Origin: Gemmatimonadaceae bacterium
GTDB taxonomy: Bacteria; Gemmatimonadota; Gemmatimonadetes; Gemmatimonadales; Gemmatimonadaceae
Direction of reading: 5' to 3'
DNA: 64,000 nucleotides
NCBI GenBank assembly: GCA_051859245.1
Contig: JBHYGA010000004.1
Coordinates: forward strand, 480,001-544,000
Part shown: positions 33,370-47,919 of the stretch, piece after piece
How positions within the stretch are numbered: the first letter of the stretch is position 1
Layout: the number at the start of each line of letters is the position of its first letter
Translations under genes and position numbers: made by a program
Notes under the pieces: model-generated
Seen by the model: only the letters and a program-made list of their open reading frames with translations
Databases searched by the model: none
Told to the model about the DNA's origin: nothing

Positions 33370-34953
<1,584 letters not shown>

Positions 34954-34982
34954 TGAGGTCGGTGGTGCAAGGTGTGATGGAT

Positions 34983-35020
34983 GCAGCGCGGTTGCCATGT
35001 GGCGGCCGCGCTGTATTGTT
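34983..35020 (+). terminator. Hairpin after ahcY, terminator-like
   Basis: Stem GCAGCGCGGTTGCCA/TGGCGGCCGCGCTGT followed by ATTGTTT. Confidence 0.6.
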
Positions 35021-35117
35021 TGCGATGCGGTCTTTTCGCATCCGGAAAGTGTCCCGCGCTCGGCGAGCAGTTCATCTGCAGCCATCCGTTGCGAGGGTAC
35101 GTTCGGTCATTCATGCT

Positions 35118-36488
35118 ATGCCCACCGCTGCTCGTCCCACACTCTCCGTCGGCGGAGCAAAGGTGCCAAAGCACAAGTTGAGGGACGGCCGAAATCTGAT
35201 TAAAGGCCTGGCGGAGCTTGGCTCTGCTCTCGGCTACACAGTGAAGGAAGAGGTTCCGGTGGTCGTCAGACGCACTAGGCCCCCTGCAATCGATATAGCT
35301 TGGTTCCGTGAGGAGGGACAAGATTTTCCACTAATGATCTTCGAGGTTGAGAGTCGCGCAACCAACTCGGCAGCTAATAACGCTGTGAAGGTATTTGGGC
35401 AGCCGAACGAGCGATTCCAGAAGCCTCTCTTCTTCTTTCACTTATTCCTCTCCTCTGGTGGCGAGACATCAAGGCTTGAGACTCTCCGTTTCCAGTTCGG
35501 GTCGCATCACTACCGCACTTACTCCTTAGATCAACGCGACTCAACGCTCTTAGTAACCGATGTCCTGTCACATCATCGCCGCCTTAGCAGACAGCTCGAT
35601 ATTGAAAGGTTGGCGTCGGCACTGAATGGCGACTCTTGGCACGACGTTGAACTCGACGTCGTGCTTAAGCATGCTGAAGCTGAAGGCTTTGACGCGCGTT
35701 TTCTCATCAGGTATTGCGAGCTAGGCAGAAGCATACCGCACTTCCGAGAACACTATCTTCGCCTAGTGGAGGAACTAGGGGCATCGGACCTAGATACGCC
35801 AGCATCGTCGAACTACGACAGTCATATCGGATACTGGTGGAATCAGCCGCTCCACATCGGATTGCTAGCGGTTCACCGACCAGACAAATGCGACTATCTT
35901 AACTCGCTCCAGCACTGGCAGAAAAATTCATCGGGTCTCACGCGAATAGGACCGCACTTCGGTTTGTCGCGCGATTACGATGATTTCCTGCTGGGGATTG
36001 CGCCGGCGTTCCTGGCTCTACTTGCGGCGCTGCTGTCCTCGGTGCCCAATGCTGGTCGCTATGTTGCAGATCTCTACCGCCCATTGCTTGATCACCTGCA
36101 ACAAGCGCCTATGGAAGCATCGTTTGGTCTCGCGCTGTGGCTCCTACAAGTTGCCGCGTCCATGCGGGACGCCGAGCGATACGAGTTCGCTAGGAAGTAC
36201 GTAAATCATCGCGGGGGCGTTTCTGCGAGTCTGATTTACAATCCGCCAAGTCTTGTGCAGTTCTCTGAATTCGATGAGGCGTGGAGCGAGGCAATTAACG
36301 AGCCTTCCGATCCCGTTCCATCGATGGCCGACTATCTGCGACGCTTGCAATTGCAACATTTTGGCGGCCCTACGTCTGACGACCTGCTCACTTCAATCGT
36401 TATGGATGTCCTAACCGATGATAAGTTCCTTCTTGGGTGGGCGCCTCGAGTTCTGCGGGCGCTCCACTCGAGAGGAATTTCAGCATGA
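35118..36488 (+). CDS. Hypothetical protein with N-terminal PD-(D/E)xK-like nuclease motif
   Basis: E..V...IDIAW...MIFEVES pattern; long helical C-terminal region. Confidence 0.6.
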   Translation: MPTAARPTLSVGGAKVPKHKLRDGRNLIKGLAELGSALGYTVKEEVPVVVRRTRPPAIDIAWFREEGQDFPLMIFEVESRATNSAANNAVKVFGQPNERFQKPLFFFHLFLSSGGETSRLETLRFQFGSHHYRTYSLDQRDSTLLVTDVLSHHRRLSRQLDIERLASALNGDSWHDVELDVVLKHAEAEGFDARFLIRYCELGRSIPHFREHYLRLVEELGASDLDTPASSNYDSHIGYWWNQPLHIGLLAVHRPDKCDYLNSLQHWQKNSSGLTRIGPHFGLSRDYDDFLLGIAPAFLALLAALLSSVPNAGRYVADLYRPLLDHLQQAPMEASFGLALWLLQVAASMRDAERYEFARKYVNHRGGVSASLIYNPPSLVQFSEFDEAWSEAINEPSDPVPSMADYLRRLQLQHFGGPTSDDLLTSIVMDVLTDDKFLLGWAPRVLRALHSRGISA

Positions 36489-36596
36489 CGAACGTTCGAG
36501 GCGGCGGGATCTGCGCGGTCCCTCTCAATCTTACGTTGACTGCTTGCATTCGCGCTTGGATCTAGCGTGCACAATCACGAAAGACCCCCGCGGTAT

Positions 36597-37571
36597 TCAT
36601 CTTCTGCACAGTGCGTTGGGAACGTTCGCATCGACAAAAGCTTGGAGTTCGTTCATCACTGGCAGCTGCCGAGCGGATTCTAGCTCCACAACCATTGTTC
36701 CGGCGCAGCACTTGCGAGCGGGTCTCCCTGCAGCGGCTAGCGGCTGTAGGTGGACGGGATGCTCATTTGGAAGCACCGCACAACAGTGCTCAGATAGCTG
36801 CGTACAGGCGATATTTACGTTTGGATTGTGCGCCCTCAAAGCCGTAATCACTTCTGGGCGTGGAGTGCCGAACTTGCCTCGGCCGATCGAGAAAACAACT
36901 GACTTCGGCTGTACCAGTTCGCACACGAGTCTCACAAATTCGTCACCGGAGCTATTCGCTGCGCCGCCGTGGTGAGGGAAGACGAGGATAGGCGCACGAA
37001 AATCAGAGTCGGACGTACGATTGGCGAGAGCCACGGCATCGATGTCGGCGGCAAGGAGGATCGCGGGAACCGAATCAAAGTCAATCCTCACGCTTGCGCT
37101 AAGCGTATTGGTCGTGATCCGCTTTCCATGGCGGTCAAAACTTCCTACGCCCTCCAGAACCAGGTGCGCTGGGGGGGAGACGATGCAAAGCTTCACACGG
37201 CCGAGCGTTAGATCGTCGCGACCTCCACTCGCGAGGCCGACTGCGAGCTTCGCTTGGTTCAAACCAAGTGCAACCTTCAAGGAACTCCACGTCCCTGTGT
37301 CCTTAAAACTGTCCTGATTCACGTGTACACAGCCAACCCGGAAACGGTCAGCACTCAGAACCGCGATGGCGCCACCGATATGATCGTGGTCGGCGTGAGA
37401 CAAATAGATCGCATCAATCTTGTAAATGCCTGCAGCGTCAAGAAACTCGAGAAGAGTGCTTCCAGGCCCAGCATCCACAACAACTAGTCCCTCGTCAGAT
37501 CTTACGACCGCGCAGTTGCCATGCCCAACATCGAGAACGGTGACGCTAGCTCCGTTTGGTTTCGGATTCAT
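36597..37571 (-). CDS. ComEC/Rec2-like metallo-beta-lactamase hydrolase (soluble)
   Basis: LDVGHGN, VDAG, SHADHDHIGG, AAD, PHHG; no TM segments; Cys/His-rich C-terminus. Confidence 0.85.
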   Translation of the reverse strand: MNPKPNGASVTVLDVGHGNCAVVRSDEGLVVVDAGPGSTLLEFLDAAGIYKIDAIYLSHADHDHIGGAIAVLSADRFRVGCVHVNQDSFKDTGTWSSLKVALGLNQAKLAVGLASGGRDDLTLGRVKLCIVSPPAHLVLEGVGSFDRHGKRITTNTLSASVRIDFDSVPAILLAADIDAVALANRTSDSDFRAPILVFPHHGGAANSSGDEFVRLVCELVQPKSVVFSIGRGKFGTPRPEVITALRAHNPNVNIACTQLSEHCCAVLPNEHPVHLQPLAAAGRPARKCCAGTMVVELESARQLPVMNELQAFVDANVPNALCRR

Positions 37572-37576
37572 TATCG

Positions 37577-38248
37577 CTACACCTCGCGCCATTCAGCGAA
37601 GTACAAGTCACTCGATGTCACTGCCCCCAAATTCACTTCAGCAAGTAGGTGGTCAGCTCCACCGAGGATCGCACTCTGTATGTTCGGTGGAAGATCCCGA
37701 AGATGAATGGAAATCAGTTTCTGTGGATCCCATCCCGGCACGACCACCATGCAGTCTTCGCTGCCGCTCACCGAATCATCGAGATCTTCGATGCGAACGA
37801 GCGTACGCCAAGGCCGACGATGCTCAGCCACTCGACCCTCGATCTCAGCGATGCAGGTGTTGATCGCGGCAAGCAGCGTCTCGGGACTGAGCTCCGCTGT
37901 CGGAATCACAACGGGGATGAACTTGCGATGAGGACGCAGATCCTCACTCAGGTCATCGGTCATTCGGGAGCAAAGAATTGCTGGCACTCCTGCCGCATTC
38001 AGGCCTGCCACAATCAAGCCGCCATCTACGGAAGCGTAATTCTTCTTCCGAAGGTGATAGTCGCATAACACGGCTGCGTTAGCGGAGGCACGCTTTCGCA
38101 GGTCGTCAACACCACGTACAGGGGCCTCAACTTCAATAGCAAGCAAATAGCTATCTTTGACGAGCTCTCCGAGAGCATCACGGCTATCTGGTTGATCGTC
38201 AACGATCAGAACCTGTTCGATTGTGTGTCCCTTCAAGGCAAGATTCAC
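37577..38248 (-). CDS. Receiver-domain protein with unknown beta-rich C-terminal domain
   Basis: VLIVDD, VLCDYHL phosphoacceptor, PAILCS; GTG start 1 nt after the kinase stop. Confidence 0.75.
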   Translation of the reverse strand: MNLALKGHTIEQVLIVDDQPDSRDALGELVKDSYLLAIEVEAPVRGVDDLRKRASANAAVLCDYHLRKKNYASVDGGLIVAGLNAAGVPAILCSRMTDDLSEDLRPHRKFIPVVIPTAELSPETLLAAINTCIAEIEGRVAEHRRPWRTLVRIEDLDDSVSGSEDCMVVVPGWDPQKLISIHLRDLPPNIQSAILGGADHLLAEVNLGAVTSSDLYFAEWREV

Positions 38249-38249
38249 T

Positions 38250-40310
38250 TTAGGCTCCCATAATCGGCAGCTCGATTCGAAAAGTTGCTCCCCCAAGTTC
38301 CCCTGCGGCTTCAGCGGAGACTTTCCCGCCCAAGTCCTTGACCGTATCTCTGACAATTGTAAGCCCCAATCCGGTACCGCTCGCGCGTGTGGTCTCTCCC
38401 GGAAGCCAAATCGAGCCAAGAGAGATGCCAGTGATGCCCGGGCCGTTGTCCAAGACCTCAATCACGCAGCTTTCGCCTAGTACGTGTGTTCGCAGCTCGA
38501 TAACACGCTCTCCGATGCCTGCCAGCTCAAAAGCATTTACGCAGTTGTTGATCAGGTTCGTAACGAGGGACTCTAACGCGGCCTCCGTTCCTTGATAGTA
38601 CGGAGAAGCGATAGCTAATGTTTGACGAACCTCGACGTCACGCCCCTCGAGGAATGGAGTAAAAGTCTTGACCACTCGGGAAACAACTTCGTGAACATCA
38701 ACCCGTCCGCGTCGACGCTTGTCACGCCGGACTAGACTCAGAGTTGCAGATGCGAGCACGGAAAGTGCGGAAACCGCACGCCGCACAGACTCAACTGGTT
38801 TCTCGAGTATCGATCCGAATCTTTCGCTGAGTGCTTTTTTGCCCCGCCTCTCAATAGTATTGATAGACGCCTCAATAACTTTGAGTGGATTGCCAGCACT
38901 TTCGTGAGCAAAAGTCGCTGCCGTAATACCCGCTGTACTTAGAGTGCGATAGAGCTGCACCTCTTTGTGAAGAGTCTGAATTTCCTTCTTTCGCGCACGA
39001 TCATACCTTTCGAATGCGGCAGAAAATCGCTCGCGTGTACGCGCAGGCGCTTTTTGGATGGCAAAATCGACTGCCTCTTTCGCTTTCGAGCTTCGTGTGG
39101 GGGCCTCAGTGCGTCGTCTAGCTCGTCTCTCCTCCGCGTCTTGCATTCTACATCGCGCCATCCATTCCAAGCAGTCTATGGCAAACCGACGGAGTTCGAG
39201 ATAGTCGGGTCCCTCGATCAGTCCACTTCGGTCGGTCTTTTGCACCAGTCGACCTTGAGTATCGGAAACCACAACTCGACCGATAGAGTTATTCGTCGAA
39301 GGCCGCTCTTCTGGGCTGCGTACTCTGCGAAGATTCATCTCCAACCAATCGTTGGTCGGGCCTCCGTACGGACTAACTCTTAATCCATTCTGATAGAGAT
39401 GCACGCCGCCGAACTCTTTGAGCCAGACTCTGACTTCACTAAGTGTGGACTTTCGTAACTCGAACGAAGCCGATGTTAGAACGAAAGACCAGAGGTCGAA
39501 GCTTGCGTCGGGGCAGCGGTAGAGCTCTCCCTCGCTAGCGGAACTGAGTTCGCTGTGTGCGGCCTCGTAGAGCGGCTTGCCACGAAAGTCCACAACTCGT
39601 GCTCGTGCTATTCCGCCTTCAAGTGTTGCGACAAGGTGATAGTCCGCGTCTCCGAAGTAGCGCTCTGCCACCAGCCGCGAGAACTCGGCGTATTCCGGAG
39701 CTTTGAGTTCCGGACGAAATCCTACGGTCTGGTCGTCAAAAGGATCTGCGAGCAGCACAAGCGCCCTAGCTAGTCGACGAACCTCGTGCGCACCTACGGG
39801 ATTTCGAAGGTTGCAGAGCTCGATGTGAGTCCCGTATCGTGGCGAAACTGCCAGCTGTTGGTGCAGGGGGAGCAGAACATCATCCACGAGTGACGCTTCA
39901 TCGAACTTCTGCCAATCCAGCGCTAAGGAAACCTCGGTTGGACGTCCCGCGCGTGAAACCGACGTCACAATCGCTCGAGTGCCAAGTCGAAGCGCCGCGA
40001 GCCTTCCTAGGCCTTTGTTGCCCGCTGGAACGCGGCCTTTCGTGGTTAGTTGCGAGATCGACTTGCGTGAGCTTCCAAGAACAAGCCAACCGTCGATAAT
40101 GTCGTCAGATGTCATCCCGATGCCATCATCAGAGATGATGATGGATCCACCGGGCTTGAGTGTGTCGCGCAGCTCAATTACGCATCGCGACGCGTCGGCA
40201 TCGTAGGCATTCTTGACCAACTCGAGGACGCCTTGGTCAAGGCTTGGATTAAGCTCCTCACCTAGACGACGCAATATCTCGGTAGAAAAGCGAAAGCGCG
40301 CTTCTTTCAA
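38250..40310 (-). CDS. GHKL (MORC/HSP90-like) ATPase fused to a histidine kinase
   Basis: ELVKNAYDA, DDGIGM, GNKGLGR; then FAHES H-box, NLINN, DNGPGI, GTGLGL; TTG start overlaps the MTase TGA. Confidence 0.88.
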   Translation of the reverse strand: MKEARFRFSTEILRRLGEELNPSLDQGVLELVKNAYDADASRCVIELRDTLKPGGSIIISDDGIGMTSDDIIDGWLVLGSSRKSISQLTTKGRVPAGNKGLGRLAALRLGTRAIVTSVSRAGRPTEVSLALDWQKFDEASLVDDVLLPLHQQLAVSPRYGTHIELCNLRNPVGAHEVRRLARALVLLADPFDDQTVGFRPELKAPEYAEFSRLVAERYFGDADYHLVATLEGGIARARVVDFRGKPLYEAAHSELSSASEGELYRCPDASFDLWSFVLTSASFELRKSTLSEVRVWLKEFGGVHLYQNGLRVSPYGGPTNDWLEMNLRRVRSPEERPSTNNSIGRVVVSDTQGRLVQKTDRSGLIEGPDYLELRRFAIDCLEWMARCRMQDAEERRARRRTEAPTRSSKAKEAVDFAIQKAPARTRERFSAAFERYDRARKKEIQTLHKEVQLYRTLSTAGITAATFAHESAGNPLKVIEASINTIERRGKKALSERFGSILEKPVESVRRAVSALSVLASATLSLVRRDKRRRGRVDVHEVVSRVVKTFTPFLEGRDVEVRQTLAIASPYYQGTEAALESLVTNLINNCVNAFELAGIGERVIELRTHVLGESCVIEVLDNGPGITGISLGSIWLPGETTRASGTGLGLTIVRDTVKDLGGKVSAEAAGELGGATFRIELPIMGA

Positions 40311-41602
40311 CGTCTGCCTCCCCAAATTGGGACAGAGCCAAGCGATCCTACGGTGAGGTGCCGACAGCGAATGACTGAGTCTAACCAACGAGTGGTCCGA
40401 GGATCCTTAAGCGTCGTGACCAATCTCCGGCAAGCGCTCAGCGATCGATCGTGCGGAACTACTACCAGCATATGATTCTCAACCGCCACAGGCTGCTCGC
40501 CCTTCACTATGGTGGCGACAGCACGATGAACGTCTCCCGGCCGTGAGGTTCTGCGTACCGCGACAAACGGAGGCTGTATTAGCGTGCCCATAAAGCGCCG
40601 TTTCGAAGCGGGTTGGGTAATTTCCCCCCATCTAGGTGCGCTCTTGGGCGTTAGATAGGGCTGCCACTTTCCACGATGCGGCGCGCGATACTCGACGACT
40701 GATCCCGTGCGAACCCTGTAGAGGTCACTGACTGTCAGCGTTTCGCCTTCTGAACTAGCCCTCACCCAGACCGCACTCGAACTCTCGCCCTGTCCACGGA
40801 TCGCGTGGAGTAGAAATACGTGCACGTCTGTTAACGAATCAAAGAGACCGTATTCTATCGTATCAACTCGGCCGGCAAGCGATTCAAGCTGCGCGCGCCA
40901 CGCTGCGTATCGCGAGCCGCTTCGGAGTACGTCAGGAAGTACGGCTACCATGCTGGTGCCTGCCCGCGCTTTCCTGAAGATAGATTCGGTGAACATAGCA
41001 GCAGAACTGACCTTCCCACGCCCCCACGAACAGTCACCTGGCGCCTCAATGTCGGTGAAGGGCGGATTCAACACGATATGCGTGACGTTGCTAAGATCGG
41101 TCTGTGCAGAAATTCCGTCGCCTCTCCGAATATTTGGAAACACGTCCTTCGGAAGAGCACACGCAGAGTTCACGCCGACACGACTAGCAGCCGCAATCGC
41201 CAGTCGCGCGCGGGCCGCCCCGACAAAAGGCTCATGGAGGTCAGTTCCTCGAAGCTGGTGGCCCCATGTGTTGATCGTGTCAATCAGGCCGCCCGTTGAA
41301 GTCAGCAGGTGACGACTGCACGCAATGAGGAGGTCTCCAGCACCACATGCTGGGTCCAGAATGACAGAGGCCGGGTTCAACTTGCGTTCAAACATCGAAA
41401 CGACGAGCTCCGCGAGAGTTGCACCAGTAAAGAATGCGCCCGCAGCCCTAAGCTCGCGAATCGGTACCAGTCGGCGGAGTTCTCGACCAGCGTGTCCGTC
41501 TAGAGTTGCCTCAATAGCACCTTTGTGAGCGTCGCCGTGCCTCGCAAAAATTTGCTCGGCTAGATGCCACATCTCTTTCGTAGCGGGCCGAAAAGCTTTC
41601 AC
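40307..41602 (-). CDS. N6-adenine DNA methyltransferase (gamma-class order)
   Basis: GAFFT (motif X), ILDPACGAG (motif I), VLNPPF (motif IV), C-terminal TRD-like region. Confidence 0.88.
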   Translation of the reverse strand: MKAFRPATKEMWHLAEQIFARHGDAHKGAIEATLDGHAGRELRRLVPIRELRAAGAFFTGATLAELVVSMFERKLNPASVILDPACGAGDLLIACSRHLLTSTGGLIDTINTWGHQLRGTDLHEPFVGAARARLAIAAASRVGVNSACALPKDVFPNIRRGDGISAQTDLSNVTHIVLNPPFTDIEAPGDCSWGRGKVSSAAMFTESIFRKARAGTSMVAVLPDVLRSGSRYAAWRAQLESLAGRVDTIEYGLFDSLTDVHVFLLHAIRGQGESSSAVWVRASSEGETLTVSDLYRVRTGSVVEYRAPHRGKWQPYLTPKSAPRWGEITQPASKRRFMGTLIQPPFVAVRRTSRPGDVHRAVATIVKGEQPVAVENHMLVVVPHDRSLSACRRLVTTLKDPRTTRWLDSVIRCRHLTVGSLGSVPIWGGRR

Positions 41603-42299
41603 TTGAGTTTCGCGAGTTGTCGTAGTTCGCTCCTCGCGCCACGTAAATGTGGCGGTCGAAGCGTGATCCGGAAAACTTCGCGAACGGCACTAGCAGCCCG
41701 CCGACTGCGGTATGCATTGATCGCGGGATTTGCGTCGGATCAAACGTCTTGCCCTGCGTCGTTTGGAACCTTGAACAGCTCATCTGGGTCGGGCACAAAC
41801 TTCATGAACGCGACCGATTGCCTCATGCACATAAAATCCACTGCAAGAGAGCAAACGATAAAGACAAATATGCGCCGTAAGCGGGCTCTGCAAAACCCTA
41901 CCACACGCACTCGACCGACTGAAAGCCGCAAAGGATGGCAGGCCGCGACGGCCGAGTGCAAGGCCGGCATCCCATGGATAGGCAAGGCGTCCAATTCATA
42001 TGTCTGGCCCTGGCTATGGGATGCAAACACAACGCAAGCGTGGGGGAAATGTCGGAGATGCAACCTTCAGCCCGACTCGCCACAACTAAATGCCCATTTC
42101 GAACAGAAGTTAGAAATGCGCTCTGTGTTCGCGCCACAACCACAGCCCGATGGTCGCACGCCTTGAGGGCGTTCAACATCGTGGCAAACTCGCAATCACC
42201 GCGGTTCGCCGACCAAGTCACATGCCCGCCCTCACATACGCTGTCATAGTGGGCGGCCGTATCAATTCACGCGTCTTCTCTCGCGCCTCACTCTTCGAG

Positions 42300-42560
42300 C
42301 GCCCAAGGGACGCCGGCCACGGACGCGACGTACCGTCTGCTGCATCGCCCTGCGGCATCAAATCGCGGGGCAACTTCTGCGAATCTCCCGACGCCATCTA
42401 CGCCAACATGACGATCAGCGTGGCGTTGTTGCGCAGGACTTCTGGCACAATCTTGTCGTACGTGTCGCGGTTGGTGTGCATGGTGGTGTTGCTGGAGTTC
42501 CAGTCGAGCGCGCCGGTGCCATTGCTAGGTGCCTTGGCACACACGAACGAGCGGCGTGCT
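42300..42560 (-). pseudogene. C-terminal fragment of an M28/carboxypeptidase-Q-like peptidase
   Basis: SFVCA...HTNRDTYDKI...NNATLIVMLA, in-frame TAG, then MASGD..KLPR; no N-terminus. Confidence 0.6.
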
Positions 42561-42605
42561 TGTTGACGCACAACAACGAATGACCGAACATGACACTCGG
42601 CGGCA

Positions 42606-43148
42606 TCACCGCGAACGAACCCAAGGTTCGTCGCAACTCGCAGTGGGTGTGCCGCGAATGCCGAGTTCCGTGGGTCGAGGCGAGCTCGCGCCTGCGCCAA
42701 CCGTGTACGCAACTCGCCCGCGCGCGTCGGTGAACGATACCGCGTCTCTGAGTGTGACCAGCTGCGATACGGCTTGCTTGCCCACCCGCGCCGGATCGTA
42801 GCGCCACCTCTTCAGAGTTTCGAGCAGGAGCGTCGCATACTCCTCCGATGTTGTGCGCATTACTTTCGCTGAACCCTTTCGCACCTCACCCGTGGAGTCG
42901 ACTACGAACTCGACGTCCACGCGCACGCAGCGCAGCCCGGACGGCGGCTGGAAGTTTGGCGTGGAAGACTTCTTCAGTTTGGCAGGTTTGTCTACGGCGC
43001 ACTGGCGATATACAGCCGCAGTGCCAAAGCGAAGCGTGTCGGTGACAGGTTCGCAGACCGCTGATGTATCAGCAGATTGGGCGCGACCAGGTGTAGCGGT
43101 CACGATTGCAGCGACGAGTGCCGTGAACAGGTGTCGAGTGCGAAGCAT
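42606..43148 (-). CDS. Secreted TonB C-terminal-like domain protein
   Basis: Signal peptide; VEFVVDSTG and WRYDPA motifs. Confidence 0.7.
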   Translation of the reverse strand: MLRTRHLFTALVAAIVTATPGRAQSADTSAVCEPVTDTLRFGTAAVYRQCAVDKPAKLKKSSTPNFQPPSGLRCVRVDVEFVVDSTGEVRKGSAKVMRTTSEEYATLLLETLKRWRYDPARVGKQAVSQLVTLRDAVSFTDARGRVAYTVGAGASSPRPTELGIRGTPTASCDEPWVRSR

Positions 43149-43349
43149 ATCTGAGTTACCGTGTGCAGAGTGAATCCGAATCTATCGAACCGCACCAGCG
43201 GCTCGCTTAGTGATCGGCAGAGCCAGGCCGTGCGCGCGATCATCTGAATCAAGTGCAATAACCGTCAGGCGCGTGGAGTCGATCGCGATCCAGTTGAAGA
43301 GAAAGCGCCAGTTGCTTGCGCCGGGTCGCTGGTCGGGCCACCGCACTCC

Positions 43350-43427
43350 GTATTGATGAGGTCGGTAGCGCAAGGTGTGATGAAGGCAGCGCGGTTGCCA
43401 TGTGACGGCAGCGCTGTATTCTTTGCG
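43350..43427 (+). repeat. Copy of ahcY stop and downstream hairpin region
   Basis: 71/78 nt match to 34947-35024 by manual alignment. Confidence 0.92.
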
Positions 43428-43789
43428 CGCAATGCAGTTTTTCTTCGAGAAGCTGAGCATGCTCAGAGGAAAAGGTGCGATGACACGTCACTTCGCATTC
43501 GCGGCCCGCTCGACATGAATCCGTCTTTGAGGATCGTCACACGGTCTGCGCGGTTGCAGCTAGGCGGCTTCTTGTGCTTTGGTTCAATGTTTGCAGCAGA
43601 AACGCTTCGCACTGCGCACTTTTGCTTGACGGGATAGATGATTGGTGCGAATGTTTTTCGGTTTCGTCGCCTCAGCAGTGACGCGGAATATGCAGCGACA
43701 ACGTCCGACGCAAACCGCCACCTGCGGTGATCGCCTGCTGTGCAGATACTCGTTAGCATGACTTCTCGAATCGCTCGCTTCAGAGGGAT

Positions 43790-45644: not shown

Positions 45645-46742
45645 ATGACTGACGTCCACTTCGCGAGACGAAGTCTTGCCCTTGTTGCACTGCTTGTCTT
45701 CGCTGCATGTGGGACCACCAACAGTGATACCGATTCCGAAGCGCCGCGCTTGGTCGAGCTTGAGGAGGCGCTCGCTGCGGGAACGGTGCTGCGGCTGGGC
45801 GCAGCGGACGGTCCGCAATCCATTGGCGCGGTGATGGCCGCGCGGATTACGCCGGATGGGTCACGGATCGTTGTGCTCGATCGCGAGCCGCCATATCTGA
45901 AAGTGTTTCGGCGTGACGGCACTCCGGAGGGGCAGTACGTCGCGCGCGGAAGCGGTCCGCAAGAGATGTCTGAAGTGTCCACCATGGCCGTTGATAACGA
46001 ACGAGCCTTTATCGTTGGTCCGTATGCACTGCTGGTGACGACACTGGATGGGTCAGTCAGCGAGAGAGTTGTGCCGGACTTTCCGCTGTTCGATATCGGC
46101 ACGGACTGCGCCGGACGCGTGATCGGCTACGGGCCGCGCGGCGATCCTGAACCACAGTTCCTGCACCAGCTCGCCGTTGATTCCACCGTGGCGGTGACTC
46201 GCTCAACGCTGCAGGGTCAGCGGACAGAACGCATGGCGTGGGGATTCGGACGATCGAGTGTGGTGCGTGCCTCGGCCGGCAGCGTGATCAACCACCGTGA
46301 AGAGGGCTTCAGTACGCCTGTGTTTCTGTCTTGCGACGGCGACACCTCGGCGCGGGGCTGGTCGTGGGCAGCGGCCGAGTTCCCTTCGAGACGGGACGCG
46401 CAGCGAGGACAGGAGTTGCGCGACGGTTCTACCGCTCAACTCACGTTTGACGCGACCGTGCCGATTAATGTGGGGGCAGCCGAGCTCGCCAACGGACGGC
46501 TTTTGTGGCTTGAGCAGCGGCTGATGTTCTCGGGCAAGAGGGAGATGGACGTGCGGTTGGACTGGTTTCTGGCGGATTCTGCGGGGCTGCGGCGTGGGTA
46601 CACATCCCAGTCCTATGTGCTCCAGGATGTCGGCGCTGGTTTGATGTTGATTTCGACGGACGAGCCGTGGTCACAGGTGTTGTTGGTCCCCGCTGACGCG
46701 GTGGAGCAGCTGCTTGGCCGAGGTTCGTGGAAGGCACGCTGA
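45645..46742 (+). CDS. Beta-propeller-like lipoprotein
   Basis: FAAC lipobox; ARGSGPQEM motif. Confidence 0.65.
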   Translation: MTDVHFARRSLALVALLVFAACGTTNSDTDSEAPRLVELEEALAAGTVLRLGAADGPQSIGAVMAARITPDGSRIVVLDREPPYLKVFRRDGTPEGQYVARGSGPQEMSEVSTMAVDNERAFIVGPYALLVTTLDGSVSERVVPDFPLFDIGTDCAGRVIGYGPRGDPEPQFLHQLAVDSTVAVTRSTLQGQRTERMAWGFGRSSVVRASAGSVINHREEGFSTPVFLSCDGDTSARGWSWAAAEFPSRRDAQRGQELRDGSTAQLTFDATVPINVGAAELANGRLLWLEQRLMFSGKREMDVRLDWFLADSAGLRRGYTSQSYVLQDVGAGLMLISTDEPWSQVLLVPADAVEQLLGRGSWKAR

Positions 46743-46902
46743 CCCGTCGTTTTTGGTGTTTGTTCGGATATTTGCTATATTTATGGAATCGGCCAGTTGC
46801 GGGCATTCGACTCGCCGCACCCCCACCTGCCAGGCCGCTCCTTGTAGGGGCGTGCTCACTACGCCGTCAATAACTACTCCCGTCGCCAGACTCAGCGCAC
46901 GC

Positions 46903-47919
46903 ATGAACGACCTGATTCTGTACACCACCGACGATGGGCGCAGTCAGATCAGGCTGCGGGCCAAAGACCAAACCGTTTGGCTAACGCAGCGCGAAATGGC
47001 GGAGCTGTTCAATGTCAGTTCCGACAACGTCGGCGTGCATCTCAAGAACATCTTCGAGGACGGCGAGCTAAATCGGGCGGCAACTACCGAGGAATCCTCG
47101 GTAGTTCAAACCGAAGGCAGCCGCGAGGTGCAACGTCCAGTCACGCTCTACAACCTCGACGCCATTCTCGCGGTCGGCTACCGCGTGCGTTCGCCGCGCG
47201 GTGTGCAGTTCCGTCGCTGGGCCTCAGTCATCCTCAAGGAGTTCCTGACCAAAGGCTTCGTGATGGACGACGAACGCTTGAAGAATCCGGATGGCCGTCC
47301 GGATTTCTTCGACGAGATGCTGGAGCGCATCCGGGATATACGCGCCTCGGAAAAGCGTTTCTATCAGAAAGTGCGCGATCTCTTTGCGCTATCCATCGAA
47401 TACGACAAGACCGACTCCGCTACACAGCAGTTCTTCGCGACGGTGCAAAATCTGTTGATCTTCGCAGTGACGCAAAAAACGGCGGTTGAACTCATTACCG
47501 CTCGTGCTAATCCCGACGATCCGCACTTCGGTCTGCTGGCGTGGAAGGGCGACAAGGTGCGCAAGGCCGACATTGTCGTCGCGAAGAATTACCTCACCGA
47601 AGACGAGATCGATACGCTCAACCGGTTGGTGGTCATCTTCCTCGAAACCGCCGAGCTGCGCGCCAAGAGCAAACAGGAAACGCGCATGGCGTTCTGGAAG
47701 CAGAACGTAGATCAGATCATCAGCTCGAACGGATTTCCGCTGCTCACGCACGCGGGATCTGTCAGTCACGAACAAATAGAAGCGCGCACAGGCGAGTTAT
47801 ATCTCGCGTTCGATCAGCAGCGCAAAACTCTCGAGGCGCAGAAAGCTGATGAGCAAGATGCAGCGGACCTGGAAGCGCTGGAGTCCACCATCAAGCGGCG
47901 TACGAAGCAACTACGCTAA
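46903..47919 (+). CDS. rhuM: Virulence RhuM family protein
   Basis: TVWLTQREMAELF, YNLDAILAVGYRVRSPRG.QFRRWA, IRDIRASEKRFYQKV, AKNYL. Confidence 0.92.
   Translation: MNDLILYTTDDGRSQIRLRAKDQTVWLTQREMAELFNVSSDNVGVHLKNIFEDGELNRAATTEESSVVQTEGSREVQRPVTLYNLDAILAVGYRVRSPRGVQFRRWASVILKEFLTKGFVMDDERLKNPDGRPDFFDEMLERIRDIRASEKRFYQKVRDLFALSIEYDKTDSATQQFFATVQNLLIFAVTQKTAVELITARANPDDPHFGLLAWKGDKVRKADIVVAKNYLTEDEIDTLNRLVVIFLETAELRAKSKQETRMAFWKQNVDQIISSNGFPLLTHAGSVSHEQIEARTGELYLAFDQQRKTLEAQKADEQDAADLEALESTIKRRTKQLR

Follow-up and report, generated by a model that had tools for sequence, protein, structure and literature searches.

The window analysed here, a stretch of 64,000 nucleotides from a Gemmatimonadaceae bacterium (positions 480,001 to 544,000 of contig JBHYGA010000004.1; coordinates below refer to this stretch), holds four tightly packed minus-strand genes that an initial annotation, made from the letters and their reading frames, regarded as a candidate phosphorelay-gated defence system. 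The genes encode a putative N6-adenine DNA methyltransferase (MTase), a soluble histidine kinase with two GHKL ATPase modules, a receiver protein and a hydrolase of the metallo-beta-lactamase (MBL) fold. This arrangement raises the question whether the four genes belong together as one system and, if so, how a two-component pair may be connected to a putative nuclease. Our analysis indicates that they probably represent a self-contained, horizontally mobile defence cassette resembling restriction-modification (R-M) systems, with a nuclease under the protein-level control of a His-Asp phosphorelay.

Four genes form a fixed and widespread mobile cassette

The MTase gene (40307..41602, minus strand, as are the following three) encodes 431 amino acids (aa) with a Pfam N6_Mtase domain. 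It is followed by the gene for the soluble dual-GHKL protein/histidine kinase (38250..40310; 686 aa counted from a TTG at 40310; HATPase_c_3 and HATPase_c), by the receiver gene (37577..38248; 223 aa), whose product combines a receiver (REC) domain of the CheY fold with a C-terminal beta-barrel of ~85 aa, and by the gene for a ComEC-type MBL-fold hydrolase, the predicted nuclease effector (36597..37571; 324 aa; Lactamase_B). The three junctions were read directly: the MTase stop and the kinase start overlap in a TTGA at 40310-40307, the kinase TAA is separated by a single nucleotide (38249) from the receiver GTG at 38248, and five nucleotides (37576-37572) lie between the receiver TAG and the MBL ATG at 37571, in full agreement with the gene coordinates and spacing given by the initial annotation. 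GGAG-like motifs are present upstream of the kinase and receiver starts. In the MTase, the kinase and the MBL, every 19-residue window stays at or below 1.6 on the Kyte-Doolittle scale and no transmembrane-like segment occurs, which bears out their description as soluble proteins.

The four genes are a fixed, translationally coupled and widespread mobile cassette. A profile of the kinase retrieved 174 related stretches from contigs sampled at one genome per species; the best 80 of the 174 were used as the locus set, and the presence of the other genes was scored by tblastn with the window's proteins. As had been anticipated, the genes co-occurred, the receiver and the MBL each being found in 79 of the 80 kinase loci and the MTase in 76. 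The sole locus without receiver and MBL lies on a contig of 2.8 kb, which breaks off within the kinase gene. Among the loci scored as lacking the MTase, L061 runs into a contig end, L060 carries a divergent Eco57I-type methylase instead, and L030 (1446-8004, Spirochaetia) has a 1079-aa N6_N4 methylase-like protein upstream together with a 1150-aa SNF2 helicase, which is HmaA/BrxH/DrmD-like according to PADLOC and whose stop codon overlaps the kinase start; L004 is considered below. Gene order and strand were the same in 74 of the 76 MTase-bearing loci, with the MTase on the opposite strand in L053 and L057, and the median gaps between successive cassette genes were -4, +2 and -2.5 nt. The copies in L006, L054 and L058 look degraded. 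The four proteins were found to be co-divergent (Mantel r 0.79-0.85, none of 999 permutations attaining the observed correlation; 66 loci with all four proteins near full length), because whole cassettes share descent. When 822 flanking open reading frames (ORFs) of at least 90 aa were clustered in search of a fifth gene, no family occurred in more than six of the 80 loci, and no candidate small regulator of 45-160 aa, sought up to 900 bp from each end of the cassette, recurred in more than four. Given this co-occurrence and the lack of any further conserved neighbour, the system therefore consists of exactly four genes.

According to the record titles of the 80 loci, the hosts belong to Planctomycetota, Latescibacterota, Gemmatimonadota, Verrucomicrobiota, Acidobacteriota, Spirochaetota, Bacteroidota/Rhodothermales, Chloroflexota, Armatimonadota, Actinomycetota and Alpha-, Beta- and Gammaproteobacteria, more than ten phyla in total, and across these phyla the kinases share about 45-56% identity with that of the window. 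With a profile of the receiver, 1.84 billion representatives yielded 1555 clusters (50% identity) at E <= 1e-3, 775 at E <= 1e-10 and 392 at E <= 1e-30; the best 150 clusters all measure 175-241 aa, and a stand-alone two-domain receiver is therefore the rule. One copy of the cassette is located on a conjugative Burkholderia plasmid, where it adjoins ParDE and is annotated as 'type I R-M subunit M / ATP-binding protein / response regulator / MBL fold metallo-hydrolase'. A further copy on a Pseudanabaena plasmid (L129, NZ_AP017563.1 107703-121772) comes without a methylase, and an IS982 transposase interrupts its MBL gene. No kinase homologue was found among 50,697 phage genome records.

A mobile unit of this kind could also be a selfish, R-M-like addiction module, in which the methylase would shield the host from the nuclease once the module is lost and the kinase-receiver pair would do no more than time establishment, with no dedicated sensing of phage. 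Such a module would suit the presence of the MTase gene in 76 of 80 loci, usually with a 4-nt overlap with the kinase start, and the toxin-antitoxin modules next to the cassette on the conjugative plasmid. The MTase-less Pseudanabaena copy with its disrupted MBL gene, although a single case (n = 1), likewise fits toxicity of the nuclease when the methylase is absent. However, a complete phosphorelay with two invariant ATPase modules appears costly for mere timing, and L004 retains an intact MBL with no MTase nearby. We consider an addiction module improbable; it would, moreover, be compatible with a role in defence.

Domain architecture of the cassette proteins

In the kinase, Pfam recognised HATPase_c_3 at residues 51-163 and HATPase_c at residues 601-708 (numbering of the long ORF), corresponding to the two Bergerat-fold modules described earlier. 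Comparison of the family profile with the PDB related residues 28-158 to human MORC2 and MORC3 (2.7e-6), with a weaker match to MutL, so that the proposed MORC-like N-terminus was recovered, and residues 446-685 to the DHp and CA modules of sensor kinases (ZraS, 2.3e-17). The protein thus runs from an N-terminal MORC-like ATPase through a conserved middle region, residues 165-440, to the DHp H-box (H469) and the CA domain. H469 and E470 of the FAHES H-box as well as both ATP-binding sites are invariant in 20 aligned kinases (alignment A1, hand-picked for diversity from the 120 kinase matches listed). In NCBIfam, a likeness of the GHKL domain to the N-terminus of BbrUII/HgiDII enzymes scored 69.9 bits versus a cutoff of 550. 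A classical type II R-M system was considered and rejected, as no restriction endonuclease family is present in the cassette and the likeness to BbrUII/HgiDII concerns this N-terminus only.

The MTase matches Pfam N6_Mtase (E 1e-6) and has the motif order of the gamma class, with motif I (DPACGAGD) preceding NPPF, and a conserved C-terminal domain. Its family profile found M.BseCI as the nearest PDB entry (1e-11), followed by the type I protein HsdM. N179-P180-P181 of the NPPF motif are invariant in 33 aligned methylases (alignment A5, hand-picked for diversity from 71 MTase ORFs), and the designation as an NPPF adenine methyltransferase stands.

The MBL matches Pfam Lactamase_B (E 8e-14), and the MBL domains of ComEC/Rec2 were by far the best PDB matches of its family profile (~3e-19), well ahead of CbpE (2e-9), with Apyc1 also among the weaker ones. 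Together with the lack of a transmembrane-like segment, this agrees with the soluble ComEC-like MBL proposed initially. Nuclease activity on DNA has been reported for the MBL domain of ComEC. The cassette protein shares the HxDxDH and PHHG motifs with ComEC/Rec2 and carries them as SHADxDH and PHHGG; H59, D63, H64, D176, H200 and H201 are invariant in 35 MBLs (alignment A4, hand-picked from 78 MBL ORFs, with one row dropped for an in-frame stop). It differs from ComEC/Rec2 in being a stand-alone protein of 324 aa that lacks the membrane channel and the OB domain and has an additional cluster of invariant cysteines: C256, C263, C289 and C322 are invariant in the same 35 sequences, and C288 and H309 are near-invariant. 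This set, spanning residues 256-322 (window ~36606-36806), suggests a structural metal site; we know of no such site in ComEC MBL domains.

The receiver gave nothing beyond a sub-threshold match to Pfam Response_reg (E 0.02); its assignment comes from structure prediction, in which the full-length model reached a mean predicted local distance difference test (pLDDT) score of 94.2. Residues 1-140 adopt the CheY fold, with 1sd5_A as the best match in VIA (Z 13.2, root-mean-square deviation (rmsd) 2.5, 118 aligned), dozens of further receivers at Z 11-12, and a Foldseek match to CheY at a TM score of 0.70 normalised by target. The acidic pair D17/D18, D63 and S/T94 are present, and D18 and D63 are invariant in 40 receivers (alignment A2, hand-picked for diversity from 79 receiver ORFs). 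The C-terminal domain (residues ~136-223), folded alone, reached a pLDDT of 90.8 and forms a barrel of five strands and one helix. Its likeness to known folds is weak and OB-like, of the type of EF-P, eIF5A and cold-shock proteins (best VIA match Z 5.7, rmsd 5.0, 74 aligned); Foldseek returned none at E <= 0.001, all matches having E >= 0.055, and a search of the ESM Atlas gave no usable match. No helix-turn-helix family matched any of the 40 receiver members, and the modelled domain is clearly not of the winged helix-turn-helix (wHTH) type. The earlier statement that the receiver has no DNA-binding domain is in keeping with these results.

The receiver is predicted to contact the MBL through its C-terminal barrel

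The interaction of the two proteins was modelled with the MBL (alignment A4) and the receiver (alignment A2) as partner, in three runs and with three controls. The receiver-MBL complex scored 0.83, 0.84 and 0.83, compared to 0.00, 0.44 and 0.00 for the controls; the runs agreed in at least 97% of contacts, and the pLDDT of the partner was at least 87. In calibration, 116 of 157 solved complexes and 2 of 215 mismatched pairs came up to the mark, counts that hold only roughly here because our own alignments were supplied; the scores express the confidence of the model and are not measured values. Contacts of the receiver are confined to its C-terminal domain (141-152, 169-176, 199-208 and 223) and include the near-invariant residues R148, W173, N206 and G208, whereas those of the MBL (36-42, 62-75, 93-104, 279 and 284) flank the metal motif H59-x-D61-x-D63-H64. 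Conservation of the receiver interface was higher than that of the remaining C-terminal domain (0.57 vs 0.45, permutation p 0.03). The receiver barrel is accordingly predicted to bind the MBL beside its metal motif. The lack of a wHTH in the receiver and this predicted barrel-MBL contact therefore support direct gating at the protein level. The initial annotation had suggested that phosphotransfer to the receiver gates the MBL; the modelled contact near the metal site (0.83 against 0.44 for the best control) fits this part of the suggestion, while the chemistry of the transfer is inferred.

A candidate mechanism would run as follows. The MTase would methylate adenine in resident DNA. Since the MORC-like ATPase takes the place of a sensor domain, the kinase may respond to a cue linked to DNA or to infection, upon which it would autophosphorylate at H469 and pass the phosphate to D63 of the receiver, both of which are invariant residues. 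The C-terminal barrel of the receiver is predicted to bind the MBL beside the HxDxDH loop, and given this position phosphorylation would switch the nuclease, in either direction, between a held and an active state; the active MBL would then degrade invading DNA. The convergent gene next to the cassette has no role in it. In a more specific version, which we put forward tentatively, the receiver may be an adaptor that clamps the ComEC-type nuclease at the rim of its active site and releases or activates it on phosphorylation, with the MORC-like ATPase as sensor and the co-translated methylase serving either self-marking or target specificity.

If true, a receiver-clamped nuclease would be a signalling logic new for R-M-like systems and present in hundreds of lineages of more than ten phyla. 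As a defence module the cassette would be very widespread, judging by the 392 clusters that match the receiver profile alone at E <= 1e-30. DNA methylation would be tied to a phosphorelay whose direct target is a nuclease and not transcription, which would broaden the theme of two-component signalling as immunity known from the Ambrosia and Detocs systems described below. The cassette would also provide a tractable bacterial model in which a MORC-type ATPase turns a cue linked to DNA into a chemical signal, and the residues of the predicted receiver-MBL contact are specific targets for mutation.

Relation to Ambrosia and other known systems

No named system was matched by PADLOC or NCBIfam, in which the cassette proteins gave weak sub-threshold matches only, and in this respect the statement of the initial annotation that the combination was not recognised as a named system holds. 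It has to be softened, however, because Ambrosia and the kinase/receiver/R-M elements reported in 2021 are already in print and represent close precedents. Ambrosia has five genes, AbrR-AbrA-AbrB-AbrC-AbrD, which encode an XRE regulator, an N6A MTase, a histidine kinase/HSP90-like ATPase, a REC-wHTH protein and a type IV HNH nuclease. P. aeruginosa PAO1 is protected by the system, and this defence is lost in all domain mutants, receiver D60A included (bioRxiv 10.1101/2025.09.30.679545). The preprint also states that reporters replacing AbrA or AbrD are induced on infection, that AbrA methylation gave phage no protection, and that the system is reported in Gammaproteobacteria only. Both systems have an N6-adenine MTase directly upstream of the kinase, followed by the receiver and the nuclease, and both combine a histidine kinase with an HSP90-like ATPase, a likeness that is seen here by architecture alone. 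In contrast, the AbrC receiver is a REC-wHTH protein that is read as transcriptional, whereas the receiver of the cassette is a REC domain with a beta-barrel; AbrD is a type IV HNH nuclease, whereas the effector of the cassette is a ComEC-type MBL; AbrR is a HipB-like XRE regulator, whereas no small ORF is conserved beside the cassette (largest cluster, four loci); and the range of Ambrosia is the Gammaproteobacteria rather than more than ten phyla. The cassette is probably an effector-swapped and output-swapped relative of Ambrosia, likened to it by architecture and not by sequence; the main text of the preprint gives neither sequences nor accessions.

Ambrosia also provides the main rival to direct nuclease control. 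By its logic, the two-component pair would mainly control expression, and the nuclease would attack DNA marked by the system's own methylase, in the manner of type IV enzymes. This possibility is kept alive by the non-protective methylation by AbrA, and the induction of the AbrA and AbrD reporters points in the same direction, as does the weak OB/cold-shock likeness (Z <= 5.7) of the receiver's C-terminal domain, a fold that often binds nucleic acids. However, the receiver of the cassette lacks a wHTH or any other recognised DNA-binding output, its C-terminal domain is predicted to bind the MBL instead, no XRE or other small regulator is conserved beside the genes, and the nuclease is of the ComEC type and not a type IV HNH enzyme. 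We therefore regard an Ambrosia-like mode of action as unlikely, and direct control of the nuclease by the receiver remains the preferred reading.

The second precedent comprises soluble kinases of the layout HATPase_c_3 + HEF_HK + HATPase_c with Response_reg_2 receivers, which adjoin type II R-M genes and were linked to paraMORC ATPases, with C5 methylases being stressed (Bellieny-Rabelo et al., 2021, PMC8011034). The cassette shares with the HEF_HK (PF19191) elements a soluble kinase with HATPase_c_3, H-box and HATPase_c, an adjacent divergent receiver and an R-M neighbourhood. The main text of PMC8011034 does not mention Lactamase_B, beta-lactamase, MBL or N6_Mtase. Membership in this group was rejected: unlike HEF_HK/Response_reg_2 elements, none of 20 cassette kinases matched PF19191 and none of 40 receivers matched PF19192 at E <= 1.

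More distant kinases were collected by a profile search of 401 Pseudomonadales genomes, 37 of which matched at E <= 1e-18. Twelve paralog loci were taken from this order, and 41 neighbouring proteins were scanned. The 12 paralogous dual-GHKL kinases match the cassette kinase profile over their full length (E 1e-43 to 1e-79) and adjoin C5, N6_N4 or Eco57I-type methylases, REC-containing proteins of 350-420 aa, and EcoRII, Vsr and GIY-YIG nucleases, with pairings to EcoRII in L117, to GIY-YIG in L118 and to Vsr in L121 and L125; in loci L117-L127, the kinase is followed by a protein of 350-470 aa, several of which have an N-terminal REC domain. Considering this variety of methylases and nucleases, the dual-GHKL module is a recurrent, swappable unit associated with R-M genes, and L117-L127 together make up a modular superfamily of two-component cassettes linked to R-M. 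A gene set of the XRE/REC-wHTH/HNH type was not found among these 12 loci. One Pseudomonadales genome with an MBL cassette (L086, G031:C1:722000-737000) additionally carries a paralogous 755-aa dual-GHKL kinase, neighboured by an HTH-SNF2-NOV_C helicase, a nucleotidyltransferase, a protein of 362 aa with no family assignment, a C5 methylase and a DUF1156 methylase-like protein.

Likeness to other systems is restricted to single features. Detocs (DtcA-DtcB-DtcC) combines a sensor kinase of the TPR type with a stand-alone buffer receiver and with a REC domain fused to a PNP ATP nucleosidase (bioRxiv 10.1101/2023.01.24.525353), and shares with the cassette the use of a His-Asp phosphorelay as an immune switch that acts on an effector and not on transcription. 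Detocs has no methylase; in the cassette, moreover, a MORC-like N-terminus stands in the place of TPR, there is one receiver, and the effector, the MBL, is a protein of its own. ParaMORC ATPases have been linked to R-M systems (Iyer et al., 2008, PMC2292703), and that paper, when searched, yielded no mention of receivers, two-component systems or lactamases. The N-terminal GHKL domain of the cassette kinase resembles MORC2/MORC3 and occurs in a similar, R-M-like context but, as compared with the MORC and paraMORC proteins covered there, is fused to a complete histidine kinase. To MADS (mad1-8) there is a distant likeness in the methylase only, which matched mad2 best in PADLOC (4.4e-12); NCBIfam MAD2 scored 23 bits versus a cutoff of 720, and no other mad gene was matched in the cassette. 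A system combining MTase, GHKL-histidine kinase, REC and MBL was not found in the literature, a point on which the supplementary tables of the Ambrosia and DefensePredictor studies could bear; a figure legend of the latter mentions a system that is predicted but unvalidated and has HATPase and REC domains. What is new here is the support from modelling for direct receiver-nuclease coupling, whereas the kind of system is already in print.

Evidence weighing against a phosphorelay-controlled defence nuclease

Several observations speak against the proposed role and mechanism. In the receiver, the residue before the conserved Pro112 is Ile111 and not the canonical Lys, with an Arg/Lys located 2-6 residues earlier, and even a weak Pfam Response_reg match was obtained for just 23 of 40 receiver members; phosphorylation of the receiver is therefore not certain. 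One control of the complex prediction reached 0.44, and conservation of the MBL interface did not exceed that of the remaining MBL (0.52 vs 0.54, p 0.66). The nuclease substrate of the MBL is inferred from its likeness to ComEC only. The step in which methylation marks self may be wrong, because methylation by AbrA did not protect phage in Ambrosia. L004 carries an intact kinase-receiver-MBL set with no methylase within 8 kb. With respect to defence, the matches in PADLOC and NCBIfam amount to just mad2 (4e-12), MAD2 (23 bits vs 720) and a weak LmuA-MBL match (3e-10). Finally, 150 of 152 immediate-flank ORFs were submitted to PADLOC at E <= 1e-5, and 24 matched; eight of these are pieces of the cassette's own or substitute MTase and MBL, leaving 16 of 142 independent flank ORFs, in 16 loci, a proportion obtained without a control set and for which no enrichment is claimed.

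These neighbours, most of which are not defence genes, would also be expected of a mobile signalling operon with a function outside defence, e.g., in DNA uptake, DNA repair or degradation of a nucleotide signal. The nearest solved relatives of the MBL are competence proteins, and its weaker matches include the phosphodiesterase CbpE and Apyc1, both of which would be in line with such a function. On the other hand, the MBL protein has no membrane or competence domains, the operon is linked near-constantly to a DNA methylase, its spread over phyla is patchy and it sits on a foreign island in the window, and the paralogous kinases are found with EcoRII, Vsr, GIY-YIG and C5/N6 methylases. A non-defence operon thus appears distinctly improbable to us, and we retain the reading as an R-M-like defence cassette.

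The cassette resides on a horizontally acquired island

A low-GC genomic island (35030..42282, no strand), lying between ahcY on one side and conserved DNA downstream on the other, holds the cassette together with a single gene unrelated to it. The window (480001-544000 of its contig) was compared with 30 relatives matching both flanks; all match the ahcY flank to ~35028 and again from 42283, and among the matches listed none lies between. The boundary directly after ahcY had thus been placed correctly by the initial annotation. The AT-rich character that it had noted is evident from a GC content of 0.556 for the 7.3-kb island: the genome averages 0.620 (sd 0.013), and a value this low is reached by just 0.06% of 4625 windows of the same size. 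As no listed match of the 30 relatives falls within the span and its composition is foreign, the cassette block is a horizontally acquired, compositionally foreign island. The cassette is present in a single copy in the genome. In a congener (L085, G002:C8:26000-36300), DUF3800, RES-domain and DUF7019 genes occupy the same site, flanked by ahcY and the conserved DNA downstream, and the site therefore behaves as a variable hotspot.

The second resident of the island is a convergent hypothetical gene (35118..36488, plus strand) outside the cassette. Its database call is 441 aa, and the start is therefore probably located near 35163; the family comprises 33 matches of ~445 aa and has no Pfam domain. 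The initial annotation had seen in it a nuclease-like protein and a possible fifth partner. The IDIAW...FEVES motif is indeed present and conserved in the family: D44, E61, E63, N73 and K76, all close to the N-terminus, do not vary among 16 members. One strongly hydrophobic 19-mer helix occurs near residue 291. Fold and family evidence for a nuclease was not obtained, as the protein had no meaningful profile match in the PDB or PADLOC and no Pfam or NCBIfam family, and the ESM Atlas returned merely a hypothetical, nameless cluster. Its location on the same island and the invariant acidic/Lys motif (D...ExE...K) could be taken to indicate a second nuclease that works with the cassette. However, tblastn detected a homologue in none of the 80 cassette loci, so that the gene stands outside the system and was rejected as a partner; in addition, its convergent orientation excludes co-transcription. 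A five-gene system is, in our view, extremely improbable.

Around the cassette, the ORF upstream of the MTase matched no Pfam family, an Rfam search of 34800-43600 gave no match at E <= 0.01, and no tRNA was found in the window. Promoter and terminator scans returned sites that were rarer than in shuffled sequences and are hence uninformative. At the right edge of the island, the first ~270 bp of the conserved DNA (42283-42550) recur in the genome at C4:551903-552167 and C4:23920-23988 with 78-85% identity and also in many relatives; the sequence, which has no Rfam match, represents either a dispersed repeat or a piece of a multi-copy gene. Further downstream, at 46714-47919 on the plus strand, lies a RhuM-family gene (Pfam 2e-106), part of which (~47438-47911) recurs on the same contig at 92% identity.

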